Source: Candidatus Lokiarchaeum ossiferum (GTDB lineage Archaea > Asgardarchaeota > Lokiarchaeia > Sigyniarchaeales > Promethearchaeaceae). Taken from it: a stretch of 32,000 bases of DNA. Below the pieces are notes generated by a model. That model made no database searches, was not told where the DNA came from, and saw only the letters and a program-made list of their open reading frames with translations. The translations under genes were made by a program, and so were the position numbers. This document shows positions 9 to 17,956 of the stretch, one piece after another (within the stretch, counting starts at the first letter, position 1; every line of letters begins with the position of its first letter). The stretch lies in NCBI GenBank assembly GCA_025839675.1, contig CP104013.1:5310001-5342000 (forward strand), written 5' to 3'.

Positions 9-923
9 TTAGAAATAGAGCATGATTTTTTGAACTTCTTCTTTCAATGCTGTGGTTTTTGCTAAAATCTCTTCTGGATTGGTGGTAGTAACATTATTAT
101 ATCCAATACTTAAGAAGAATTTTCGCTTGCTATGTGTAAAACGTGAGATTTGGATTGAAGTTGGCCCTGTTTGTAATGAAAAATCCGCCATATTCAATTC
201 CACTTTTTTAGACTCAAAGCTAGAAAATAATTCTGGTGCGACATTCTTCATCATTTCTTGGTCTACACTGGAAGCAAAATAAGACCCAATCTCGACGAAA
301 TTTTCAGAATATATTATGATAAAGTCAATATTTTCTTGGAAATTATTTTTTTCCACAAATTCTGAGAATATCACGCCAAAATTATCCATTAAAATCGAAT
401 TTCCCATTAATGCTTTCGATAATGCGTGAATGACTGAGATTGGATTGAATATGGAAGTATGGAAAATATCGGCTTCAAGAGGTTTCGCCATCTCAACGAA
501 TTTTTGCCCTACTGTTTCAGCAAGCCTCATTGTATCTGCATCAAGTTCCATTCCTGGATCCAGCTTGTTAATCACAATATTGATTTTCGCTTCAGGACTA
601 TATTCAAGAATGGCTACTCTCACTGCTTGGAAATAATTAATTGCATCATTAAAAGAACTTTGATCTTGAATATCAATGACATAAAAACATTCATCAATAT
701 CAGAAAAATTTATCTCAGCTTTTTTTATGTGCTTCTGGCGAAGTTTAGATTGGCCTCCAAGATCCCAAATGACGATTTCCTTATCAAGAAAGTTGATCTT
801 TGTTCTCTCTATTCCTTTTGTGGGTTTAAGTTTACTTAGGGCTTTAAATTCGCGCTGAAATGTTTTTACAATGCTTGTTTTGCCGGAGTTATCTATTCCT
901 ATAATGGGTATTTTGATTGCCAT
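9..923 (-). CDS. Rag/Gtr-family small GTPase with C-terminal roadblock-like domain (paralog 1)
   Basis: 304 aa. G1 GIDNSGKTS, G3 WDLGGQ, G4 NKLD. 'ILEYSPEAKI' and 'HTSIFNPISVIHALS' parallel the RagA segments 'ILQNSPDAKI' and 'RTSIWDETLYKAWS' recalled from memory. A ~130-aa alpha/beta C-terminal extension follows, as in Rag/Gtr C-terminal roadblock domains. Confidence 0.75.
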   Translation of the reverse strand: MAIKIPIIGIDNSGKTSIVKTFQREFKALSKLKPTKGIERTKINFLDKEIVIWDLGGQSKLRQKHIKKAEINFSDIDECFYVIDIQDQSSFNDAINYFQAVRVAILEYSPEAKINIVINKLDPGMELDADTMRLAETVGQKFVEMAKPLEADIFHTSIFNPISVIHALSKALMGNSILMDNFGVIFSEFVEKNNFQENIDFIIIYSENFVEIGSYFASSVDQEMMKNVAPELFSSFESKKVELNMADFSLQTGPTSIQISRFTHSKRKFFLSIGYNNVTTTNPEEILAKTTALKEEVQKIMLYF

Positions 924-995
924 GTTTATCTGCCATTTATATCAAGTAATACTATCTTAAATATTTTTTTTGAATATGAAAAAAAGAGAATCTTA

Positions 996-1901
996 TTAGA
1001 AATAGTTCATTAACTTCTTAATATCTTCCAAAAGATTAAACGAGTCCATTATTAGAGGTGATGCATCAAGAATTTTGGTAGAATCGTAGCCAAAAGTGAA
1101 ATAAAATGGTTCTTCTCCTATTTCAAATGCAATCATATATAATGTGATTTCTTTTACTTGAAGTGATATTTGCGACAAATTTAATTGTTTTTCTGTAAAA
1201 GTTTTAAATATTTCATGGGAAATATCTCGCATTTGTTGCTGATTAATTGCAGGATTGAAATAGTTTCCAATTTCCATCAGATTTTTTGTAAAAATCATTA
1301 TAAAATCACAACCATTTCCTTTGTTAATAAATTCCATGAATAATATTTGAAAATTATCATAAAGTGTTGTATTCTGGAAAATTGGCTTGGAAAATGCGCG
1401 TATAACATTTATTGGGTTGAAAATTGATGTCTTTGCAATTCTAATATTTAATGGTTGACTGAGTTCCAGAAATTTTTTTTGAAGGGTTTCATACATCTTG
1501 ATATGATCTTCACTGGCTTCAAAACCTGGATCAAATTTATTTATCAGCAAATTGATGGTAGCATCTGGAGAGTATTCCAAAATTGATTCTTTAATATCCC
1601 CAAAAAATGTCATTGATTCCGTCATTGCATCTTGATCTTGAAAATCAATAACAAAGAACAATTCTTCAATGCCGGAAAAATAGGTTTCTGCCTTCTTTTT
1701 ATAGGATTCGCGATATTTTTCTTGACCACCAAAATCCCAAACGACAATATCTGAATCAAGGAATTTTAGCTTGGAACGTTCAATTCCCTTGGTGGGTTTA
1801 ATGGCTTTTTCCAAGGTTTTAAATTCTCTTCGCAGAGTAAGGATTAAACTTGTTTTTCCTCCTCCCGCAATTCCTAAAATTGGTAACTTTCGAATAGGCA
1901 T
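996..1901 (-). CDS. Rag/Gtr-family small GTPase with C-terminal roadblock-like domain (paralog 2)
   Basis: 301 aa, collinear with and clearly homologous to ORF 9..923. G1 GIAGGGKTS, G3 WDFGGQ, G4 NKFD, 'ILEYSPDATI', 'KTSIFNPINVIRAFS'. Same two-domain architecture. Confidence 0.75.
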   Translation of the reverse strand: MPIRKLPILGIAGGGKTSLILTLRREFKTLEKAIKPTKGIERSKLKFLDSDIVVWDFGGQEKYRESYKKKAETYFSGIEELFFVIDFQDQDAMTESMTFFGDIKESILEYSPDATINLLINKFDPGFEASEDHIKMYETLQKKFLELSQPLNIRIAKTSIFNPINVIRAFSKPIFQNTTLYDNFQILFMEFINKGNGCDFIMIFTKNLMEIGNYFNPAINQQQMRDISHEIFKTFTEKQLNLSQISLQVKEITLYMIAFEIGEEPFYFTFGYDSTKILDASPLIMDSFNLLEDIKKLMNYF

Positions 1902-1959: not shown

Positions 1960-2376
1960 CTACTTTTGAAGAGTTGAGAAATATTCCGAAATTGTGGTAT
2001 TCCATCTTGATAAAATAGACTCAATTTTGGAAGTAAGTTCTTTTGAACTTAAAGGTGAATATATGTAGAGATAGCCTTTATTTGTTTTTGGTGATATATC
2101 TTCTCGATTATTCAAAGTACATCGTTCTTTGAATTCTGTCAAGGTCACCGATTTTCGCTCCACTAATCCCTTTTTCATTAAAACTTTAAGGTTTTTCTGG
2201 ATTATTGAACGTTCGCTATCCATAACGTCAACTAAGTTTAAGATACAAGTTCCACTATTTTCCATTTCAACGATATTCATGAAACATTCTAATTGCTTCT
2301 TGCTTAAATTAAAAACGTGGCGTATGATATTTCCAACAAGAATCGATTTATCTGGTAATATAGAAGAAACTGTCAT
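1960..2376 (-). CDS. winged-helix transcriptional regulator (TrmB/MarR-like)
   Basis: 138 aa. 'LSKKQLECFMNIVEMENSGTCILNLVDVMDSERSIIQKNLKVLMKKGLVERK' fits the TrmB/MarR wHTH pattern (helix-turn-helix followed by a ...GLVER wing). Confidence 0.55.
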   Translation of the reverse strand: MTVSSILPDKSILVGNIIRHVFNLSKKQLECFMNIVEMENSGTCILNLVDVMDSERSIIQKNLKVLMKKGLVERKSVTLTEFKERCTLNNREDISPKTNKGYLYIYSPLSSKELTSKIESILSRWNTTISEYFSTLQK

Positions 2377-2447: not shown

Positions 2448-2876
2448 TTATTTCGTGTTTTTTTTTATTACAGTGTCAATTATGCTCGCAAATTGAGCTT
2501 TTGGCGCCATTCCGACTTGTCGATGTACTAATTTCTTATTTTTGATAAATAATGTGGTTGGGATACCAGACACTTGGAACTGCTGTGCAATTTGTCCTAA
2601 ATCATCAACATTTAATTTTGCGAAGATTACACCTTTCGATTTAAATTCCTTTTGAAGTGCCTCAAAAGCTGGTGCAAATGCTTTACAAGGTCCACACCAA
2701 GCTGCCCAAAAATCTACAATTATTATATTATCAATATAATCGTTAACTATTTCATTAAAATGGTCAACTGAACTTATATTGACCACGCTATCAGGGAGTT
2801 GTTTTGTTGTCATCATTTCTATCATCTTTTTTCGTCGTATTAATTCTAACTCTTTGTCTTGTGACATTTTTTTCAC
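2448..2876 (-). CDS. trxA: thioredoxin
   Basis: 142 aa. Canonical active site 'WAAWCGPCK' and the downstream 'GIPT' cis-Pro loop. Has an N-terminal charged extension. Confidence 0.9.
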   Translation of the reverse strand: MKKMSQDKELELIRRKKMIEMMTTKQLPDSVVNISSVDHFNEIVNDYIDNIIIVDFWAAWCGPCKAFAPAFEALQKEFKSKGVIFAKLNVDDLGQIAQQFQVSGIPTTLFIKNKKLVHRQVGMAPKAQFASIIDTVIKKNTK

Positions 2877-4182: not shown

Positions 4183-5046
4183 GTGATTTCTGGACTGAAT
4201 TATATGACCCCCTCACCCCAAACAAAGGAAGAATGCCGCAAAATTTTCGAAAAAGGGCTTTCAATTTATAGTAAAAAGGACTATACTTCTGCATTACCTT
4301 ATTTTAAAAAAATGGACCATCGAGAATTTGAAGTTCTGAAATATTATCATCTCGGGTTAACTTACATTCAATTAGGTCAATTTGAAAATGGTTTAACTCA
4401 TTATCGAAAAATTCATGAGATTCCTCCTTCTGTTGAAGGAATAGAATACGATAGAATTATGTATAGTTTGTATATCAATATGGGATCAACTCTCCAAGTG
4501 CTCGCTCGAAGGAAACAAAAACCAGAATTATTTGAAGAGGCGATTACTTGCTATACTTATGCTTTACAAATCAAAGATTTTGATCCTCGAGTATGGAATA
4601 ATTTAGGAAACGCGTATCTTGATATGAATAAATTCCAAGATGCCATTAGATGTTTTAATAAAGCGATTAAATTAGATGATGAATTTCCTGAAGCCTACTA
4701 TTCTCTTTCCTTAGTTTACGAATCCATGAAGATGTATGAGAAAGCTGTGGAAGTATTAAAAAAAGGGTTGCGATGGAAGGCACGAAATAAAACATATTTG
4801 AATCGAATCGCGGGCTTAACCTTTGGGTTGGGAAATTTCCAAGAAGCTAAAGAATATGCTAAACGGGCAGTGGATGTAAAACCCGATGATCTTACTGCAA
4901 ATAAAAATCTCTCATTAATTTTATATAATCTTGGTGAATATGAAGAAGCATTCACATATTATCAGAAATTGTTATTGATTAATCCCGAATTCAAAGAGCC
5001 AGAAGTCGAAGGAATTTTTGAGGATCTTAAAAAAAAGATTTCATAA
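4183..5046 (+). CDS. TPR repeat protein
   Basis: 287 aa with repeated 34-aa TPR signatures (e.g. 'WNNLGNAYLDMNKFQDAIRCFNKAIKLDDEFPEAYYSLSLVYESMKMYEKAVEVLKKGL'). The track start is GTG 4183. An in-frame ATG at 4204 is an equally plausible start. Confidence 0.8.
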   Translation: MISGLNYMTPSPQTKEECRKIFEKGLSIYSKKDYTSALPYFKKMDHREFEVLKYYHLGLTYIQLGQFENGLTHYRKIHEIPPSVEGIEYDRIMYSLYINMGSTLQVLARRKQKPELFEEAITCYTYALQIKDFDPRVWNNLGNAYLDMNKFQDAIRCFNKAIKLDDEFPEAYYSLSLVYESMKMYEKAVEVLKKGLRWKARNKTYLNRIAGLTFGLGNFQEAKEYAKRAVDVKPDDLTANKNLSLILYNLGEYEEAFTYYQKLLLINPEFKEPEVEGIFEDLKKKIS

Positions 5047-6724: not shown

Positions 6725-7183
6725 TTGAATTTTTTTGTGTCGTCAAGTGATCCTCAATTTTCGGATTTTACCTTTACTGAATTACTTAATTTTGTTTCCA
6801 CCATTAGCCGCACTAAAAAACAATCTTCCCTCGGGGTGTGGAAGGATGGGCATGGTTTAGAATCAATGGACCATTTGGAAGCTAATGTGGATCAAATTCT
6901 TGAAGAATTGACAACCCGTGTCAAAAAAGTTTGGTCCTTAGAGCGAATTCAATCTAATTTTGCCAGAGCGGGTTTAAATTTACCCAATGAAATTCTTAAC
7001 ATCTTTAATATAACATCTTCTGAGTTGAATCGATTATTATACAAGTTTCCTCCTGCAATTGGGGCTGAGAACGTCAATGGTGTAGATGAAATCTGGCTGG
7101 TTATTAATAACATGAAATATTTGATGAAATCTGATGGTAAAATTTTTGTTTCAGAAATGCCCCGCAAAGAATTTTTTTCATAA
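6725..7183 (+). CDS. hypothetical protein, paralog A of a tandem pair
   Basis: 152 aa with a TTG start in the track. Shares 'ISRTK.QS..GVWKDGHGL.S.DHLEA.VD.IL.EL' and 'RIQ.NF....LNLP.E.LN....T...LN...YK' with ORF 7274..7708. No known family recognised. Confidence 0.6.
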   Translation: MNFFVSSSDPQFSDFTFTELLNFVSTISRTKKQSSLGVWKDGHGLESMDHLEANVDQILEELTTRVKKVWSLERIQSNFARAGLNLPNEILNIFNITSSELNRLLYKFPPAIGAENVNGVDEIWLVINNMKYLMKSDGKIFVSEMPRKEFFS

Positions 7184-7273: not shown

Positions 7274-7708
7274 ATGTATTTTGACGATGAGGATAATCCA
7301 TTCAAGAAATTTCAATTTGAAGAACTTGTAGAAATGGTTCGCACAATTTCGAGAACTAAAACTCAATCTCGCGAAGGAGTGTGGAAAGATGGGCACGGTC
7401 TTCAATCCATTGATCATTTAGAAGCTCATGTGGATGATATCCTTGATGAACTCGCCCGAAGAATTCGAGCAAATTTTACCATAGATCGGATCCAACGAAA
7501 TTTTCGTTATAATAAACTTAATCTACCCACAGAATTTCTAAATCTCTACAATTTAACTGCTGCCCAATTGAATTTCATGATATATAAAGATAAAAATTCT
7601 ATAGGGGCAATTTTAACAGATGGTAAGGAAGAAATTTTTATTAAACATGGGCCTGTGCGTTATGTCATGAATACTGAAGGAAATATCGCCGTGATAAAAG
7701 AAAATTAA
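7274..7708 (+). CDS. hypothetical protein, paralog B of a tandem pair
   Basis: 144 aa with an ATG start. Collinear homology to ORF 6725..7183 over its full length. Confidence 0.65.
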   Translation: MYFDDEDNPFKKFQFEELVEMVRTISRTKTQSREGVWKDGHGLQSIDHLEAHVDDILDELARRIRANFTIDRIQRNFRYNKLNLPTEFLNLYNLTAAQLNFMIYKDKNSIGAILTDGKEEIFIKHGPVRYVMNTEGNIAVIKEN

Positions 7709-14380: not shown

Positions 14381-15436
14381 TTGCATAATTTATATACTCT
14401 TAACGTTAAGTCAGATAAAATTCAAAAAGTCCATTATAATGTTGTCTATAAAAAGATCAATATGCTCCATGCCTATTATTCCGATTTGATCCAATCTGTA
14501 ATGATTTACCAAAATTCTCACAATCAGGTATATATCGAAGCTGAAAATGAAAAAGGGGTCACACAATTGACTGGTAAGATGGTCGCTATTGACAATGAGT
14601 CCATTCATAACGAAAACATTGACACAATTATTTCTAAATTTGAAAATTTTTCTATTTATAAGATTTCAACAGGATTTCCTGAAGAAGAAATTAAAATTTA
14701 TGGCAATACTAATTTAAAAACTGAAATATTACACATTTTTGAATCTGATGCAGATGTGGTGACTATTGGGATGGTAGACCCGTCCAATGAGTGTGATTTT
14801 GTGATTATATCCATTTTTTCTACCGATTCTCAAGTTCTATCTATGTTTGATTATAATTTTGAATTTCCAGAATTATTCCAACCCAATAGCAATGTTGATT
14901 TAGGTGAAAAAGAACTAAAACCGGATTTACTCGCTCAAAATGATCAGATTATCCGAACCGAATTAAAGAAGGAGAAAAAAGAAGATTCTAACTCGCGAAA
15001 AACTAAAAAACCAAAAAAATCTACAAAAACCCTTAAACTCCAATCCAATCAAGTGAAAAGCGAATCAAATTTAGATAAAAAGTCGGAAACTAATATTGTC
15101 CAGAAACCTGAGGTAAAATTACTCAATGCTGATACAACACCGCGATCTGTTGTGGAGCAAACAATTCCAATTTCTTCTTCTATGGTAATTTTAAAACAAT
15201 TTTCTTCAAAAATGCAATCTAAGGCTATTGAAATTGAAACATGGAAAGAAAAAGTTCATCATCAAAAATTGAAAAATGAAAAGTTGATAAAAAACCTTCA
15301 ATCTGAAAAATTAAATAATAAAAAACTCAAGCGAACCTTAAACGAAAAAGAGAAAGAATTACTAACTGTTTCAGCACAGTTGAAAGAGCTGCAAGATGAA
15401 ATTCTTCATCTTCATGATCTGATGCAATTGGAATGA
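14381..15436 (+). CDS. hypothetical protein: conserved ~165-aa N-domain, basic linker, C-terminal coiled coil (paralog A)
   Basis: 351 aa. The TTG start aligns exactly with the Met of paralog B ('HNLYTLNVKSD' vs 'SNLFIMDVKSD'), with GAGGT ~9 nt upstream. Shared motifs 'ISTGFPEEE' and 'FDY.FEF'. K-rich linker (res ~193-246). Heptad-rich tail (res ~275-351). Confidence 0.7.
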   Translation: MHNLYTLNVKSDKIQKVHYNVVYKKINMLHAYYSDLIQSVMIYQNSHNQVYIEAENEKGVTQLTGKMVAIDNESIHNENIDTIISKFENFSIYKISTGFPEEEIKIYGNTNLKTEILHIFESDADVVTIGMVDPSNECDFVIISIFSTDSQVLSMFDYNFEFPELFQPNSNVDLGEKELKPDLLAQNDQIIRTELKKEKKEDSNSRKTKKPKKSTKTLKLQSNQVKSESNLDKKSETNIVQKPEVKLLNADTTPRSVVEQTIPISSSMVILKQFSSKMQSKAIEIETWKEKVHHQKLKNEKLIKNLQSEKLNNKKLKRTLNEKEKELLTVSAQLKELQDEILHLHDLMQLE

Positions 15437-15679
15437 TCTATTTTTATCACTTTATTTTCTTTTTTTAAACTTAAAAATCACGTATTTATGGGTAATTGAC
15501 ACCCATTTCCTTGCCAATTTTGTGTAAAGATCCCTATTTTTGCTGGAATCCACGCAAAGTTTAAATAAGGGAAAATTAATTTACAAAAAATCCATGTATT
15601 TAAAATGGAGAAAATCTTTGGAAGATTACTACTAGAAATAACCTAAAAATCATTAGATTTATATTGGATGTATTGTAAG

Positions 15680-16600
15680 ATGTCAAATTTATTCATTATG
15701 GATGTTAAAAGTGATGTTACGAAAGTTTTGAATCATCTAACTTATAACAAATTAAAAATATTAGATCCGTTTTTTACTCAGTCGATTAAAGCTGTTTTTT
15801 CAACAGATATTTCTATGAATTCAATTTTAATTGAAACTCAGAAAAAATCGGAAGCATTAAGGATAACTAAAAAAATTGTCTCAATTGATTCCACATCCAT
15901 CAAGGTTTATGAAAATGAAGGGGGGTTGTCGAACATTGAGAATTATTGTGTATATAATATTTCTACGGGATTTCCGGAAGAAGAGGATTTAAATCTTGTT
16001 GGTTCGATTAATCTGAAAAATTTAATCACACATTTATTTTCAATGGGGCAAGAAGTGGTGAGAATTGGCCTTTGGGATTCGGAAAGTGATGAAGAAAATT
16101 ATGCTTCCTTAGTCATTTTTTCTCCTGAATCAGTTCTTTTAGAAAATTTTGACTACGAATTCGAATTTCAGGATGAAGAAGAACATGAATCTGAAGAAGT
16201 CCTGGAAGTGGATGAAGATCTTGATGTGGAGGATGAAATTGAAATGGATGCCGAAATTGAAGCAGATGACGAACCGCTAAAAGATGATAATTCTGTAGAT
16301 GAAGTCCAATCCTTAATAAAAGATGTCAATATTCGGGAAAAAAAAAAAAATGAGCCCCAGGAAATATCTTCATTAGCGCATGCCCAATCATTACTCGCTT
16401 CTTTGGAAAATCGCTATGAAAATTTACAGTTAGATTATGAATCAAACAATCGCGAAAATGCTCGATTAACTCAAAAATGTAAAGATTATGAACAAGAAAT
16501 AATTAAAATTACTGATGAGTTAAAAATTTCTCAAGATCAATTGCAGAAGTTGCAAAATGCAATAAATACTCTCATAAATCTCTCACAAATTGAAAAATAA
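15680..16600 (+). CDS. hypothetical protein: conserved ~165-aa N-domain, acidic linker, C-terminal coiled coil (paralog B)
   Basis: The track ORF starts at 15668 (MYCKM...). Met at 15680 (MSNLFIMDVKSD) aligns with the paralog A start. D/E-rich linker 'QDEEEHESEEVLEVDEDLDVEDEIEMDAEIEADDE'. C-terminal coiled coil. Confidence 0.7.
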   Translation: MSNLFIMDVKSDVTKVLNHLTYNKLKILDPFFTQSIKAVFSTDISMNSILIETQKKSEALRITKKIVSIDSTSIKVYENEGGLSNIENYCVYNISTGFPEEEDLNLVGSINLKNLITHLFSMGQEVVRIGLWDSESDEENYASLVIFSPESVLLENFDYEFEFQDEEEHESEEVLEVDEDLDVEDEIEMDAEIEADDEPLKDDNSVDEVQSLIKDVNIREKKKNEPQEISSLAHAQSLLASLENRYENLQLDYESNNRENARLTQKCKDYEQEIIKITDELKISQDQLQKLQNAINTLINLSQIEK

Positions 16601-16606
16601 TTTTAA

Positions 16607-17956
16607 TTATTTACCTAAATCTATCAAATCCCTCATTTTTTCTAACATTTCTTGCCCTTTGTTTGTTAATATATATAATGCTTTTTTTTGGTCTGGAATG
16701 GTATCAATAATCAATCCATCCTCAACAAGATTGTTGATATGTTGGTAAATTGACTGTAATGATTTCTTTTTACCCAAAGCTCCCCAAATTGCATAACCAT
16801 GATTTGCTTTTTTTTCTGCTACTAAATTTAGAATTTCAAATCTTTGGGTTGAGAACTCAGAAATACCCCACACTACCTTTTTTATATCCCTCATTTGTGA
16901 TGCAAAAACATTTAGAGCATTTAATCCAGAACCGGTTAAAATTGCCACAGAAGTCTTTGGATCAATTTGTTCTTTCTGTATAAGAGATTTTGCTGCCGAA
17001 ATTACTGATGCGGAAGCTGGTTCAATAAACAATCCTTCATATTTGGCAAGATCTAAGGCATCCTTTGTCATTTCGGAAGCGTCTATTTGTAATTCTTCTC
17101 CTTCTGTAAGTTTTAAAATAGAATTGACTTCATTAATCAAGAATGGATTTTCCAATTTAAGCGATTCCGCTAAAAATGCTCCATCGCTTTTTTTGAGAGA
17201 GACTGCAAATATTTTTGGAATTTTACTTATCCATTTTGAAGCCAGGGCATCTTGAAATCCTCTGTAAATTGACAATATCAAGGTTCCCGAACCTCGAGGT
17301 ACAATAATACTCTCGATATTTTTCATTTGGAGAATTAATTCTAAAGCGATTGTCTTTTGTCCCTCGATTGTGAGTAAATTATTATTTGGGGTGGGGAAGT
17401 AACTCTTTTTTGATAAAGTTAATTCATTGGCCAAAGAAATGGCTTCATCGAGATTTTTCCCTGCTTGAATCACTTCAGATCCATAAACTTTGATTTGTTC
17501 AATTTTGGCTAAATCCATCTGTTTGGGTAAAATGTTAGTGGAAGAAATCTGTCCTTTTGCACTATATGCCGCTAGGCTTATACCAAATGATCCTGTGCTT
17601 GCAGAAATGATTTTTGAAAAATTTTTTGATAGAATATCTGAAGTGATTAGGGCACTCGCACGATCACGAAATGAACCCGTTGGATTCCTAAATTCAAGTT
17701 TTAGATTTAAGTTTTTTAAATTTTCCATATTCTGAATTGGGATAACTGGAGTATTTCCCTCAAAAAGGGTGATTTGCTGTTCATATTTGGGTAAAAAAGG
17801 GATCAAAGACCACATTGATTTTAGTTCAATTTTTTCAATAGGAGGGCCGGTAATCGGATGAATAAAGATCAAATTATTGCAATTCGGACACCAAAGGTAT
17901 GGCACCTCAAATTCTTGGTTGCATTTATTACAAAAAGGTTTATTCTTCCATTTCAT
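16607..17956 (-). CDS. threonine-synthase-like (PLP fold type II) domain lacking the Schiff-base lysine, with N-terminal Zn ribbon and C-terminal PadR-type wHTH
   Basis: 449 aa. Zn ribbon 'CNKCN...CPNCN'. ThrC-family blocks 'NPTGSFRDRAS' (canonical NPTGSFKDR), 'SASTGSFGISLAAYSAKG', 'EGQKTIALEL', 'PRGSGT'. C-terminus 'ILNLVAEKKANHGYAIWGAL...SIYQHINNLVEDGLI...LYILTNKGQEML' matches the PadR pattern. Confidence 0.75.
   Translation of the reverse strand: MKWKNKPFCNKCNQEFEVPYLWCPNCNNLIFIHPITGPPIEKIELKSMWSLIPFLPKYEQQITLFEGNTPVIPIQNMENLKNLNLKLEFRNPTGSFRDRASALITSDILSKNFSKIISASTGSFGISLAAYSAKGQISSTNILPKQMDLAKIEQIKVYGSEVIQAGKNLDEAISLANELTLSKKSYFPTPNNNLLTIEGQKTIALELILQMKNIESIIVPRGSGTLILSIYRGFQDALASKWISKIPKIFAVSLKKSDGAFLAESLKLENPFLINEVNSILKLTEGEELQIDASEMTKDALDLAKYEGLFIEPASASVISAAKSLIQKEQIDPKTSVAILTGSGLNALNVFASQMRDIKKVVWGISEFSTQRFEILNLVAEKKANHGYAIWGALGKKKSLQSIYQHINNLVEDGLIIDTIPDQKKALYILTNKGQEMLEKMRDLIDLGK

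Follow-up and report, generated by a model that had tools for sequence, protein, structure and literature searches.

A pair of adjacent genes in the Asgard archaeon Candidatus Lokiarchaeum ossiferum encodes two related small GTPases of the Rag/Gtr type, each carrying a C-terminal domain that is predicted to adopt the roadblock fold. The genes, designated UP and DN, lie at one end of a 32,000-nucleotide stretch of the genome (contig CP104013.1, positions 5,310,001 to 5,342,000 of the forward strand; G+C ~31–35%), which is called the window below and to which L. ossiferum coordinates refer. We are highly confident that both proteins have the Rag-like GTPase plus roadblock architecture. The duplication that produced them was very probably a lineage-specific event inside Lokiarchaeia, and the pair is most likely an archaeal parallel to the Rag heterodimer of eukaryotes and not directly ancestral to it.

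The two open reading frames (ORFs), the spacer between them (read from the sequence) and the domains, delimited by motif coordinates and AlphaFold2 (AF2) models, are as follows.

996..1901, minus strand: UP gene, an ORF of 301 amino acids with the stop codon within the coordinates; Rag/Gtr-like GTPase with a putative C-terminal roadblock domain
1377..1901, minus strand: UP GTPase domain, residues 1–175 (motif coordinates and AF2 secondary structure)
1851–1874, 1785–1799, 1722–1736, 1530–1541 and 1419–1430, minus strand: UP motifs G1, switch I Thr region, G3 (DFGGQ), G4 (NKFD) and G5 (TSIF), respectively
999..1376, minus strand: UP C-terminal domain of predicted roadblock type, residues 176–301, a-b-b-a-b-b-b-a (AF2 and full-length Foldseek alignments to Rag/Gtr chains)
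924..995, minus strand: UP–DN spacer, 72 bp
9..923, minus strand: DN gene, an ORF of 304 amino acids with the stop codon within the coordinates; UP paralogue, Rag/Gtr-like GTPase with a putative C-terminal roadblock domain
405..923, minus strand: DN GTPase domain, residues 1–173 (motif coordinates and AF2 model)
876–899, 813–827, 750–764, 558–569 and 447–458, minus strand: DN motifs G1, switch I, G3 (DLGGQ), G4 (NKLD) and G5 (TSIF), respectively
12..404, minus strand: DN C-terminal domain of predicted roadblock type, residues 174–304, with the same a-b-b-a-b-b-b-a topology (AF2 and Foldseek)

A sequence-only reading of this DNA had described two adjacent, co-oriented paralogues of ~300 amino acids, 72 bp apart, each ending in an alpha/beta domain of ~130 amino acids. 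The ORFs, whose strand (minus) that reading did not name, and the spacer bear this out, and the C-terminal domains, of ~126 amino acids in UP and ~131 in DN, have alpha/beta secondary structure in the AF2 models. UP and DN are 43% identical across 302 residues (BLASTP, E 2e-95), with 52% identity in the G domain and 32% in the C-terminal domain.

Family and fold of the two proteins

All five G motifs (G1–G5) are complete in both proteins. G1 is GIAGGGKT in UP and GIDNSGKT in DN, the switch-I motif KPTKG is common to the two, G3 reads WDFGGQ in UP and WDLGGQ in DN, G4 reads NKFD and NKLD, and G5 is TSIF in each. The WDxGGQ, NKxD and TSIF signatures named in the earlier reading are therefore present in both proteins, while the TSIW variant listed with them occurs in neither. 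Since the nucleotide-binding motifs and the switch-II glutamine are all kept, GTP binding and hydrolysis would be expected of both UP and DN. The P-loop starts at residue 9–10 and beta-1 at residue 2–4, with no N-terminal amphipathic helix and no Gly2, and the C-termini (...LMNYF and ...IMLYF) contain no cysteine in their final 10 residues. The lack of both the helix and the cysteine argues against membrane anchoring of the Arf or Rab type. A G5 motif of the TSI[WYF] type and the absence of a C-terminal lipid-modification motif are traits of the Rag family.

The top Pfam model for both proteins was Gtr1_RagA (PF04670), at 74.0 bits for UP (E 1.6e-20) and 70.9 bits for DN (E 1.4e-19), the cut-off being 22 bits; such scores lie well outside what chance would give. 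The runner-up was Arf, also above its threshold (55.1 bits for UP and 58.5 bits for DN). In phmmer searches of all PDB sequences, entries 8zla/9m28 and 8yl2 came first, followed by human RagA (E 3e-16 for UP, 4e-13 for DN) and Gtr1, and then by Arf/Arl chains. MglA gave no match to either protein in the Pfam or PDB phmmer searches. An exhaustive representative search found relatives in 1022 clusters at E <= 1e-3 and in 33 clusters at E <= 1e-30.

A database protein of Ca. Lokiarchaeum ossiferum that is 99% identical to UP is labelled 'ADP-ribosylation factor-like protein' by NCBI and UniRef. Together with the Arf scores of 55–58 bits, and with the structural closeness of this class to Arf remarked on by Tran et al. 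(PMC10933270), these names would suit Arf/Arl-family GTPases bearing an unrelated C-terminal extension. We consider this very improbable. Gtr1_RagA outscores Arf for both proteins, the early P-loop leaves them without the amphipathic helix and Gly2, and their G5 motif is of the Rag type. Foldseek matches to the Arf family span only ~175 columns, the length of the G domain, whereas those to Rag/Gtr chains span ~310 and include the C-terminal domain. With 301 and 304 amino acids and a second domain, UP and DN depart from the Arf/Arl/Sar pattern of a single domain of ~180 amino acids with an N-terminal amphipathic helix.

They also depart from the pattern of MglA, in which the GTPase stands on its own, has an enlarged switch I and works with MglB as a separate partner. 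MglA–MglB resembles the present proteins in that a small GTPase acts with roadblock-fold dimers, but MglB is a separate roadblock GTPase-activating protein dimer, whereas in UP and DN the predicted roadblock domain is fused to the GTPase. The MglA-like proteins of Promethearchaeum syntrophicum MK-D1 were placed in a separate group by Tran et al. (PMC10933270). The view that UP and DN are Rag/Gtr-like, and not Arf/Sar or MglA proteins, thus stands, with Gtr1_RagA as the best Pfam model and RagA/Gtr1 ranked over Arf by phmmer.

AF2 monomer models of UP and DN were made with a 39-row alignment, and each had a mean pLDDT (predicted local distance difference test) of 90.2 and a pTM (predicted template modelling score) of 0.87. 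In the UP model, the C-terminal domain consists of helices (H) and strands (E) in the order H178–193, E198–205, E210–215, H221–237, E244–249, E252–261, E264–273 and H281–300. In both models the order is helix, two strands, helix, three strands, helix, which is the full roadblock topology. Foldseek searches of the PDB aligned both domains (~300–325 columns) to 8yl2, RagA, Gtr1, RagC and Gtr2, with E 3e-20 to 3e-23 and template modelling (TM) scores of 0.69–0.76 for 8yl2, and E ~1e-19 and TM ~0.66 for RagA. By the modelled topology and the full-length superposition on RagA, Gtr1, RagC and Gtr2, the C-terminal domain is predicted to be of the roadblock type.

Pfam searches with the C-terminal domains alone (E up to 10) returned no family, Robl_LC7 included, so that of the two Pfam families suggested earlier only Gtr1_RagA was recovered, in both proteins. 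When an archaeal profile of the C-terminal domain was compared by hhalign with its counterparts in eukaryotic Rag proteins (the four together, the A types or the C types), the probability was 0.2–1.5%, which is not significant. As these sequence-only tests were negative, the roadblock assignment is based on the predicted structures and on phmmer alignments reaching partly into the domain. Judged from the models, homology of the C-terminal domain to that of eukaryotic Rag proteins is at the level of fold only.

UP and DN therefore compare with eukaryotic RagA/B–RagC/D and Gtr1–Gtr2 as follows. Like these, they are two paralogues with a G domain and a putative C-terminal roadblock domain, a TSI-aromatic G5 motif and no lipid-anchor cysteine, and their models match the eukaryotic structures over the full length (TM ~0.6–0.67). 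They differ in having NKxD as G4, where RagA and RagC have HKxD, in lacking N- or C-terminal extensions of the RagC type, in the undetectable sequence similarity of the C-terminal domains, and in their origin: the duplication is an independent one and both copies are RagA-like.

Origin of the duplication

A neighbour-joining tree was calculated from 39 sequences (299 columns, Kimura distances, 200 bootstraps). The four eukaryotic sequences (RagA and RagC from human, Gtr1 and Gtr2 from yeast) were checked residue by residue against PDB chains; the outgroup was ARF1, in an unverified sequence. RagA/Gtr1 and RagC/Gtr2 formed one clade (91%) with all archaeal sequences outside it. The UP clade was recovered at 84%, DN sequences at 48–75% and the Promethearchaeum DN sequences at 100%. 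UP, DN and a small singleton clade came together at 70%, nested among sequences found only in Asgards.

In pairwise phmmer comparisons RagA was matched by UP with 63 bits and by DN with 53 bits, and both also matched Gtr1. No match of UP or DN to RagC was found in these comparisons; RagA and RagC matched each other with 64–69 bits. On these sequence comparisons both UP and DN are RagA-like and neither is RagC-like, so that they do not combine one A-type with one C-type protein, as Rag pairs do. Their identity to RagA is ~20–25%, as against 43% to each other.

The distribution of the genes was followed across GTDB species, each represented by a single genome; this yielded 62 loci, which were compared with both proteins by tblastn. 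In five of the loci a DN-type gene comes directly after a UP-type gene: L001, from an uncultured archaeon (67% identical to UP and 66% to DN); L002, L004 and L005, from Promethearchaeum metagenome-assembled genomes (MAGs); and L003, from P. syntrophicum MK-D1. A sixth pair, with a 13-bp spacer, was present on a JGI metagenome contig (L066). The MK-D1 genes (L003 5992–6888 and 6900–7820, 11 bp apart) and the UP and DN genes match each other best in both directions, and their flanking genes are the same; UP is 61% identical to WP_147663118.1 and DN ~47% to WP_147663117.1. The two pairs agree in gene order, in GTPase-roadblock architecture and in a neighbourhood of thioredoxin, winged helix-turn-helix (wHTH), pair and TldD/PmbA. 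The MK-D1 pair belongs to another genus, and its 11-bp spacer contrasts with the 72 bp of L. ossiferum, in which there are possible internal signals. Spacers are 11–21 bp long in Promethearchaeum and 72–75 bp in Lokiarchaeum-like genomes. Between the two genera, UP orthologues are ~60% identical and DN orthologues ~47–50%, and both the adjacency and the UP-then-DN order are kept.

More distant Lokiarchaeia have different arrangements. A single Rag-like gene is found at the same place but inverted in Harpocratesius (L010) and in L069, L007 has two DN-type copies on either side of the thioredoxin and wHTH genes, and single Rag-like genes occur in unrelated contexts in L006, L064, L067 and L068. 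The tree, the pairwise phmmer scores and the lone genes that relatives carry in this syntenic position (L010 and L069) together point to a tandem duplication within Lokiarchaeia that was independent of the eukaryotic A/C split.

Both an independent duplication and one predating the A/C split had been entertained in the sequence-only reading. The first is favoured by the position of UP and DN together inside an Asgard-only clade, apart from the eukaryotic A/C clade (91%). According to the second, UP and DN would correspond to the eukaryotic RagA/B and RagC/D lineages, the duplication would be older than eukaryotes and the heterodimer would have been inherited. The common architecture and the common two-paralogue logic would fit such an inheritance, as would the score of UP against RagA (63 bits), which is close to that of RagC against RagA (64–69 bits). 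It is nevertheless highly unlikely to be correct, because the clade made up of the eukaryotic A- and C-type proteins contains no archaeal sequences, UP and DN are much closer to each other than to RagA, and both match RagA/Gtr1 with no phmmer match to RagC. In addition, only the Lokiarchaeum/Promethearchaeum lineage has the pair; elsewhere the slot is taken by single genes. The support for a duplication inside Lokiarchaeia, and above all for its timing there, is limited by the nature of the tree, a simple neighbour-joining tree with only four eukaryotic sequences and weak deep nodes (24–59%).

Proposed pairing of the two proteins

To our knowledge, obligate heterodimerisation of two paralogues is found among small GTPases only in the Rag family. 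Tran et al. (2024, Commun Biol, PMC10933270) report an AF2 prediction for the one operon pair of Rag-like proteins in MK-D1: a heterodimer like that of Gtr1/Gtr2, formed through the roadblock domains. Of the two homodimers, one was not predicted by AF2 (PMC10933270). In the alignment of PMC10933270, no plain GTPase-roadblock proteins other than WP_147663117 and WP_147663118 have consecutive accessions, and the sequences of these two are those of the L003 genes. The pair modelled by Tran et al. was therefore almost certainly WP_147663118/WP_147663117. Given the published AF2 prediction for these orthologues and the conserved tandem arrangement, we think it rather probable that UP and DN form a functional heterodimer. 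The greater divergence of the C-terminal domains (32% identity, against 52% for the G domains) would be as expected if the dimer interface had become asymmetric.

The proposed course of events begins with a tandem duplication inside Lokiarchaeia, after which the two genes have been kept adjacent in the Lokiarchaeum/Promethearchaeum lineage. Both GTPases would be active, binding and hydrolysing GTP. UP and DN would then associate as a pseudo-symmetric heterodimer through their two roadblock domains, by beta-sheet edge and helix packing as in Gtr1–Gtr2 and RagA–RagC. Such a complex would constitute a two-GTPase switch, with an output set by the combined nucleotide state and read by partners. Eukaryotic Rag GTPases act with the Ragulator/EGO scaffold, the GATOR1/FLCN GAPs and TORC1. 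The window ORFs scanned with Pfam gave no match to a roadblock, longin or LAMTOR-like domain, and no TORC1, Ragulator, GATOR or FLCN partners were identified, the rest of the genome not having been searched for partners. In L064, a 170-aa ORF with no Pfam match (4244–4756) lies directly downstream of the single-copy Rag-like gene P0019 and is a candidate for a small longin- or roadblock-like partner.

A more specific proposal, which we offer only tentatively, is that an obligate heterodimer of the Rag type was re-invented independently in Lokiarchaeia, in convergence with the RagA–RagC logic of eukaryotes. A self-associating ancestor would have been duplicated, and UP would have lost self-association and become dependent on DN; the complex might be wired to the TrmB-like regulator and thioredoxin encoded beside it, and not to TOR. 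In this proposal the ancestral state is the one still seen in Harpocratesius-like lineages, which have one copy at this locus. We know of no TOR in Asgards.

The closest solved relatives of UP and DN, at phmmer E 1e-25 to 1e-33, are themselves Lokiarchaeal and share the GTPase-roadblock core. Their PDB titles describe 8yl2 as a homo tetrameric RagA-like small GTPase from Asgard Lokiarchaeota (LokiRagO) and 8zla/9m28 as monomeric Rag-like (LokiRagM). No paper was found in a literature search on 8ZLA and the LokiRag entries. Both proteins are other paralogues; in sequence they match the MK-D1 proteins WP_147663357 (XGR) in the case of 8yl2 and WP_147662243 (GRX) in that of 8zla and 9m28, and these MK-D1 proteins carry extra domains. 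Neither is titled as heterodimeric, and a roadblock tail is thus no guarantee of a heterodimer of the Rag type.

These structures are in line with another explanation, namely that UP and DN do not pair, each acting alone or as a homo-oligomer, and that the tandem layout results only from a duplication of fairly recent date and from common regulation. Single-copy relatives in Harpocratesius and other lineages indicate that a lone gene can be functional, one homodimer of the MK-D1 pair is still predicted by AF2 (PMC10933270), and the L. ossiferum spacer has promoter-like and terminator-like signals of its own. We regard this explanation as unlikely, though it deserves some weight. The adjacency and order of UP and DN have been kept across two genera in spite of a sequence divergence of 40–50%, the Promethearchaeum spacers are as short as 11–21 bp, DN accompanied every UP-clade gene proper for which the downstream flank could be read, and AF2 predicts the MK-D1 heterodimer and not one of the homodimers (PMC10933270).

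Certain further observations, beside the LokiRag structures and the remaining predicted homodimer, weigh against a UP–DN heterodimer. No GTPase-roadblock tandem fusion was found among the best 150 relatives from the exhaustive representative search; these are ~300–500 amino acids long, and the only two-stretch matches have 376 and 503 amino acids. After the gene of singleton P0015, whose place in the UP clade has only 54% bootstrap support, comes a membrane-protein gene and not DN; the flank upstream of P0015 is unreadable. The third observation concerns the spacer, where a T7 run comes straight after the UP stop codon and A8 plus the element TATTTAAG, which resembles a TFB-recognition element (BRE) and TATA box, lies ~38 nt ahead of the DN ATG. 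With these two features strict co-transcription of UP and DN in L. ossiferum is not assured, and DN may have its own promoter in the spacer, as judged from its sequence. The pattern of a T-run and then an A-run is shared with L001. Alignment of the spacer and upstream DNA across genera revealed no convincing conserved promoter element other than the shared T-run and A-run. UP and DN are in the same reading frame (1901–923 being divisible by 3).

Neighbouring genes and significance

The pair is embedded in a conserved gene order. TPI is followed by one or two small proteins of unknown kind, a kinase-like protein of the APH type and a TPR protein, then by thioredoxin, the TrmB-like winged-helix protein and the pair itself, with TldD/PmbA coming next on the opposite strand. 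In the window, the two genes immediately upstream of UP are co-oriented with it.

1960..2376, minus strand: TrmB-like winged-helix protein, 138 amino acids (Pfam TrmB E 2.7e-4, under the gathering score)
2448..2876, minus strand: thioredoxin, 142 amino acids (Pfam Thioredoxin E 3.5e-26)

The TrmB-like gene adjoins the Rag-like gene or genes in L001–L004, L007, L010, L011, L066 and L069. Thioredoxin and the TrmB-like gene stand together beside the Rag-like gene or genes in L003, L007, L010, L066 and L069, even where these are single or inverted, and the genes may be functionally linked. In lineages with one copy, a ~600-amino-acid multi-pass membrane protein without a Pfam match is encoded between the Rag-like gene and TldD/PmbA (L063 1008–2792, L069 521–2434), at the position occupied by DN in the paired lineages.

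Related genes were also seen in two other settings. L015 and L019 are DATKTP01 contigs from a MAG labelled Ca. Deferrimicrobium, a bacterium; they carry Rag-like genes, two of which are ~900 bp apart in L015, and are probably mis-binned Asgard sequence. L036 (3151–6525), from the Promethearchaeota MAG LW40_45, has three query-related small-GTPase G domains within 3.4 kb, in a clustered array.

Two further tandem pairs of paralogues are present in the window. The genes at 14381–15436 and 15668–16600 (both plus strand) encode proteins of 351 and 310 amino acids with a common N-terminal domain of ~170 amino acids ('ISTGFPEEE' motif) and coiled-coil or acidic tails; they belong to no Pfam family, apart from a sub-threshold match to EAD9. 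The genes at 6725–7183 and 7274–7708 (both plus strand) encode proteins of 152 and 144 amino acids with no Pfam match. As a single gene occupies the syntenic position in MK-D1 (L003 1813–2223), this duplication is specific to the Lokiarchaeum side. The gene at 16607–17956 (minus strand) encodes an unusual enzyme-regulator fusion, a pyridoxal phosphate-dependent enzyme (PALP) with zinc-ribbon-like CxxC motifs at the N-terminus and a PadR/HTH_45 winged helix at the C-terminus.

Rag-like GTPases have long been on lists of Asgard signature proteins. The idea that a tandem pair forms a heterodimer is not new, since it is stated for the orthologous MK-D1 pair (PMC10933270), and the locus adds little to that 2024 description; a literature search on L. 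ossiferum Rag found nothing specific. What is new here is the conservation of the pair and its neighbourhood across genera, the single-copy relatives that mark the likely pre-duplication state at the same locus, and explicit evidence that the duplication differs from the eukaryotic one. This evidence favours a parallel origin over a pre-eukaryotic one. With L. ossiferum and MK-D1, two Asgard archaea in culture possess the pair, which makes it a tractable system for the origin of Rag heterodimers, which could show whether roadblock-mediated heterodimers and cross-talk between two nucleotide pockets preceded or paralleled those of eukaryotes.

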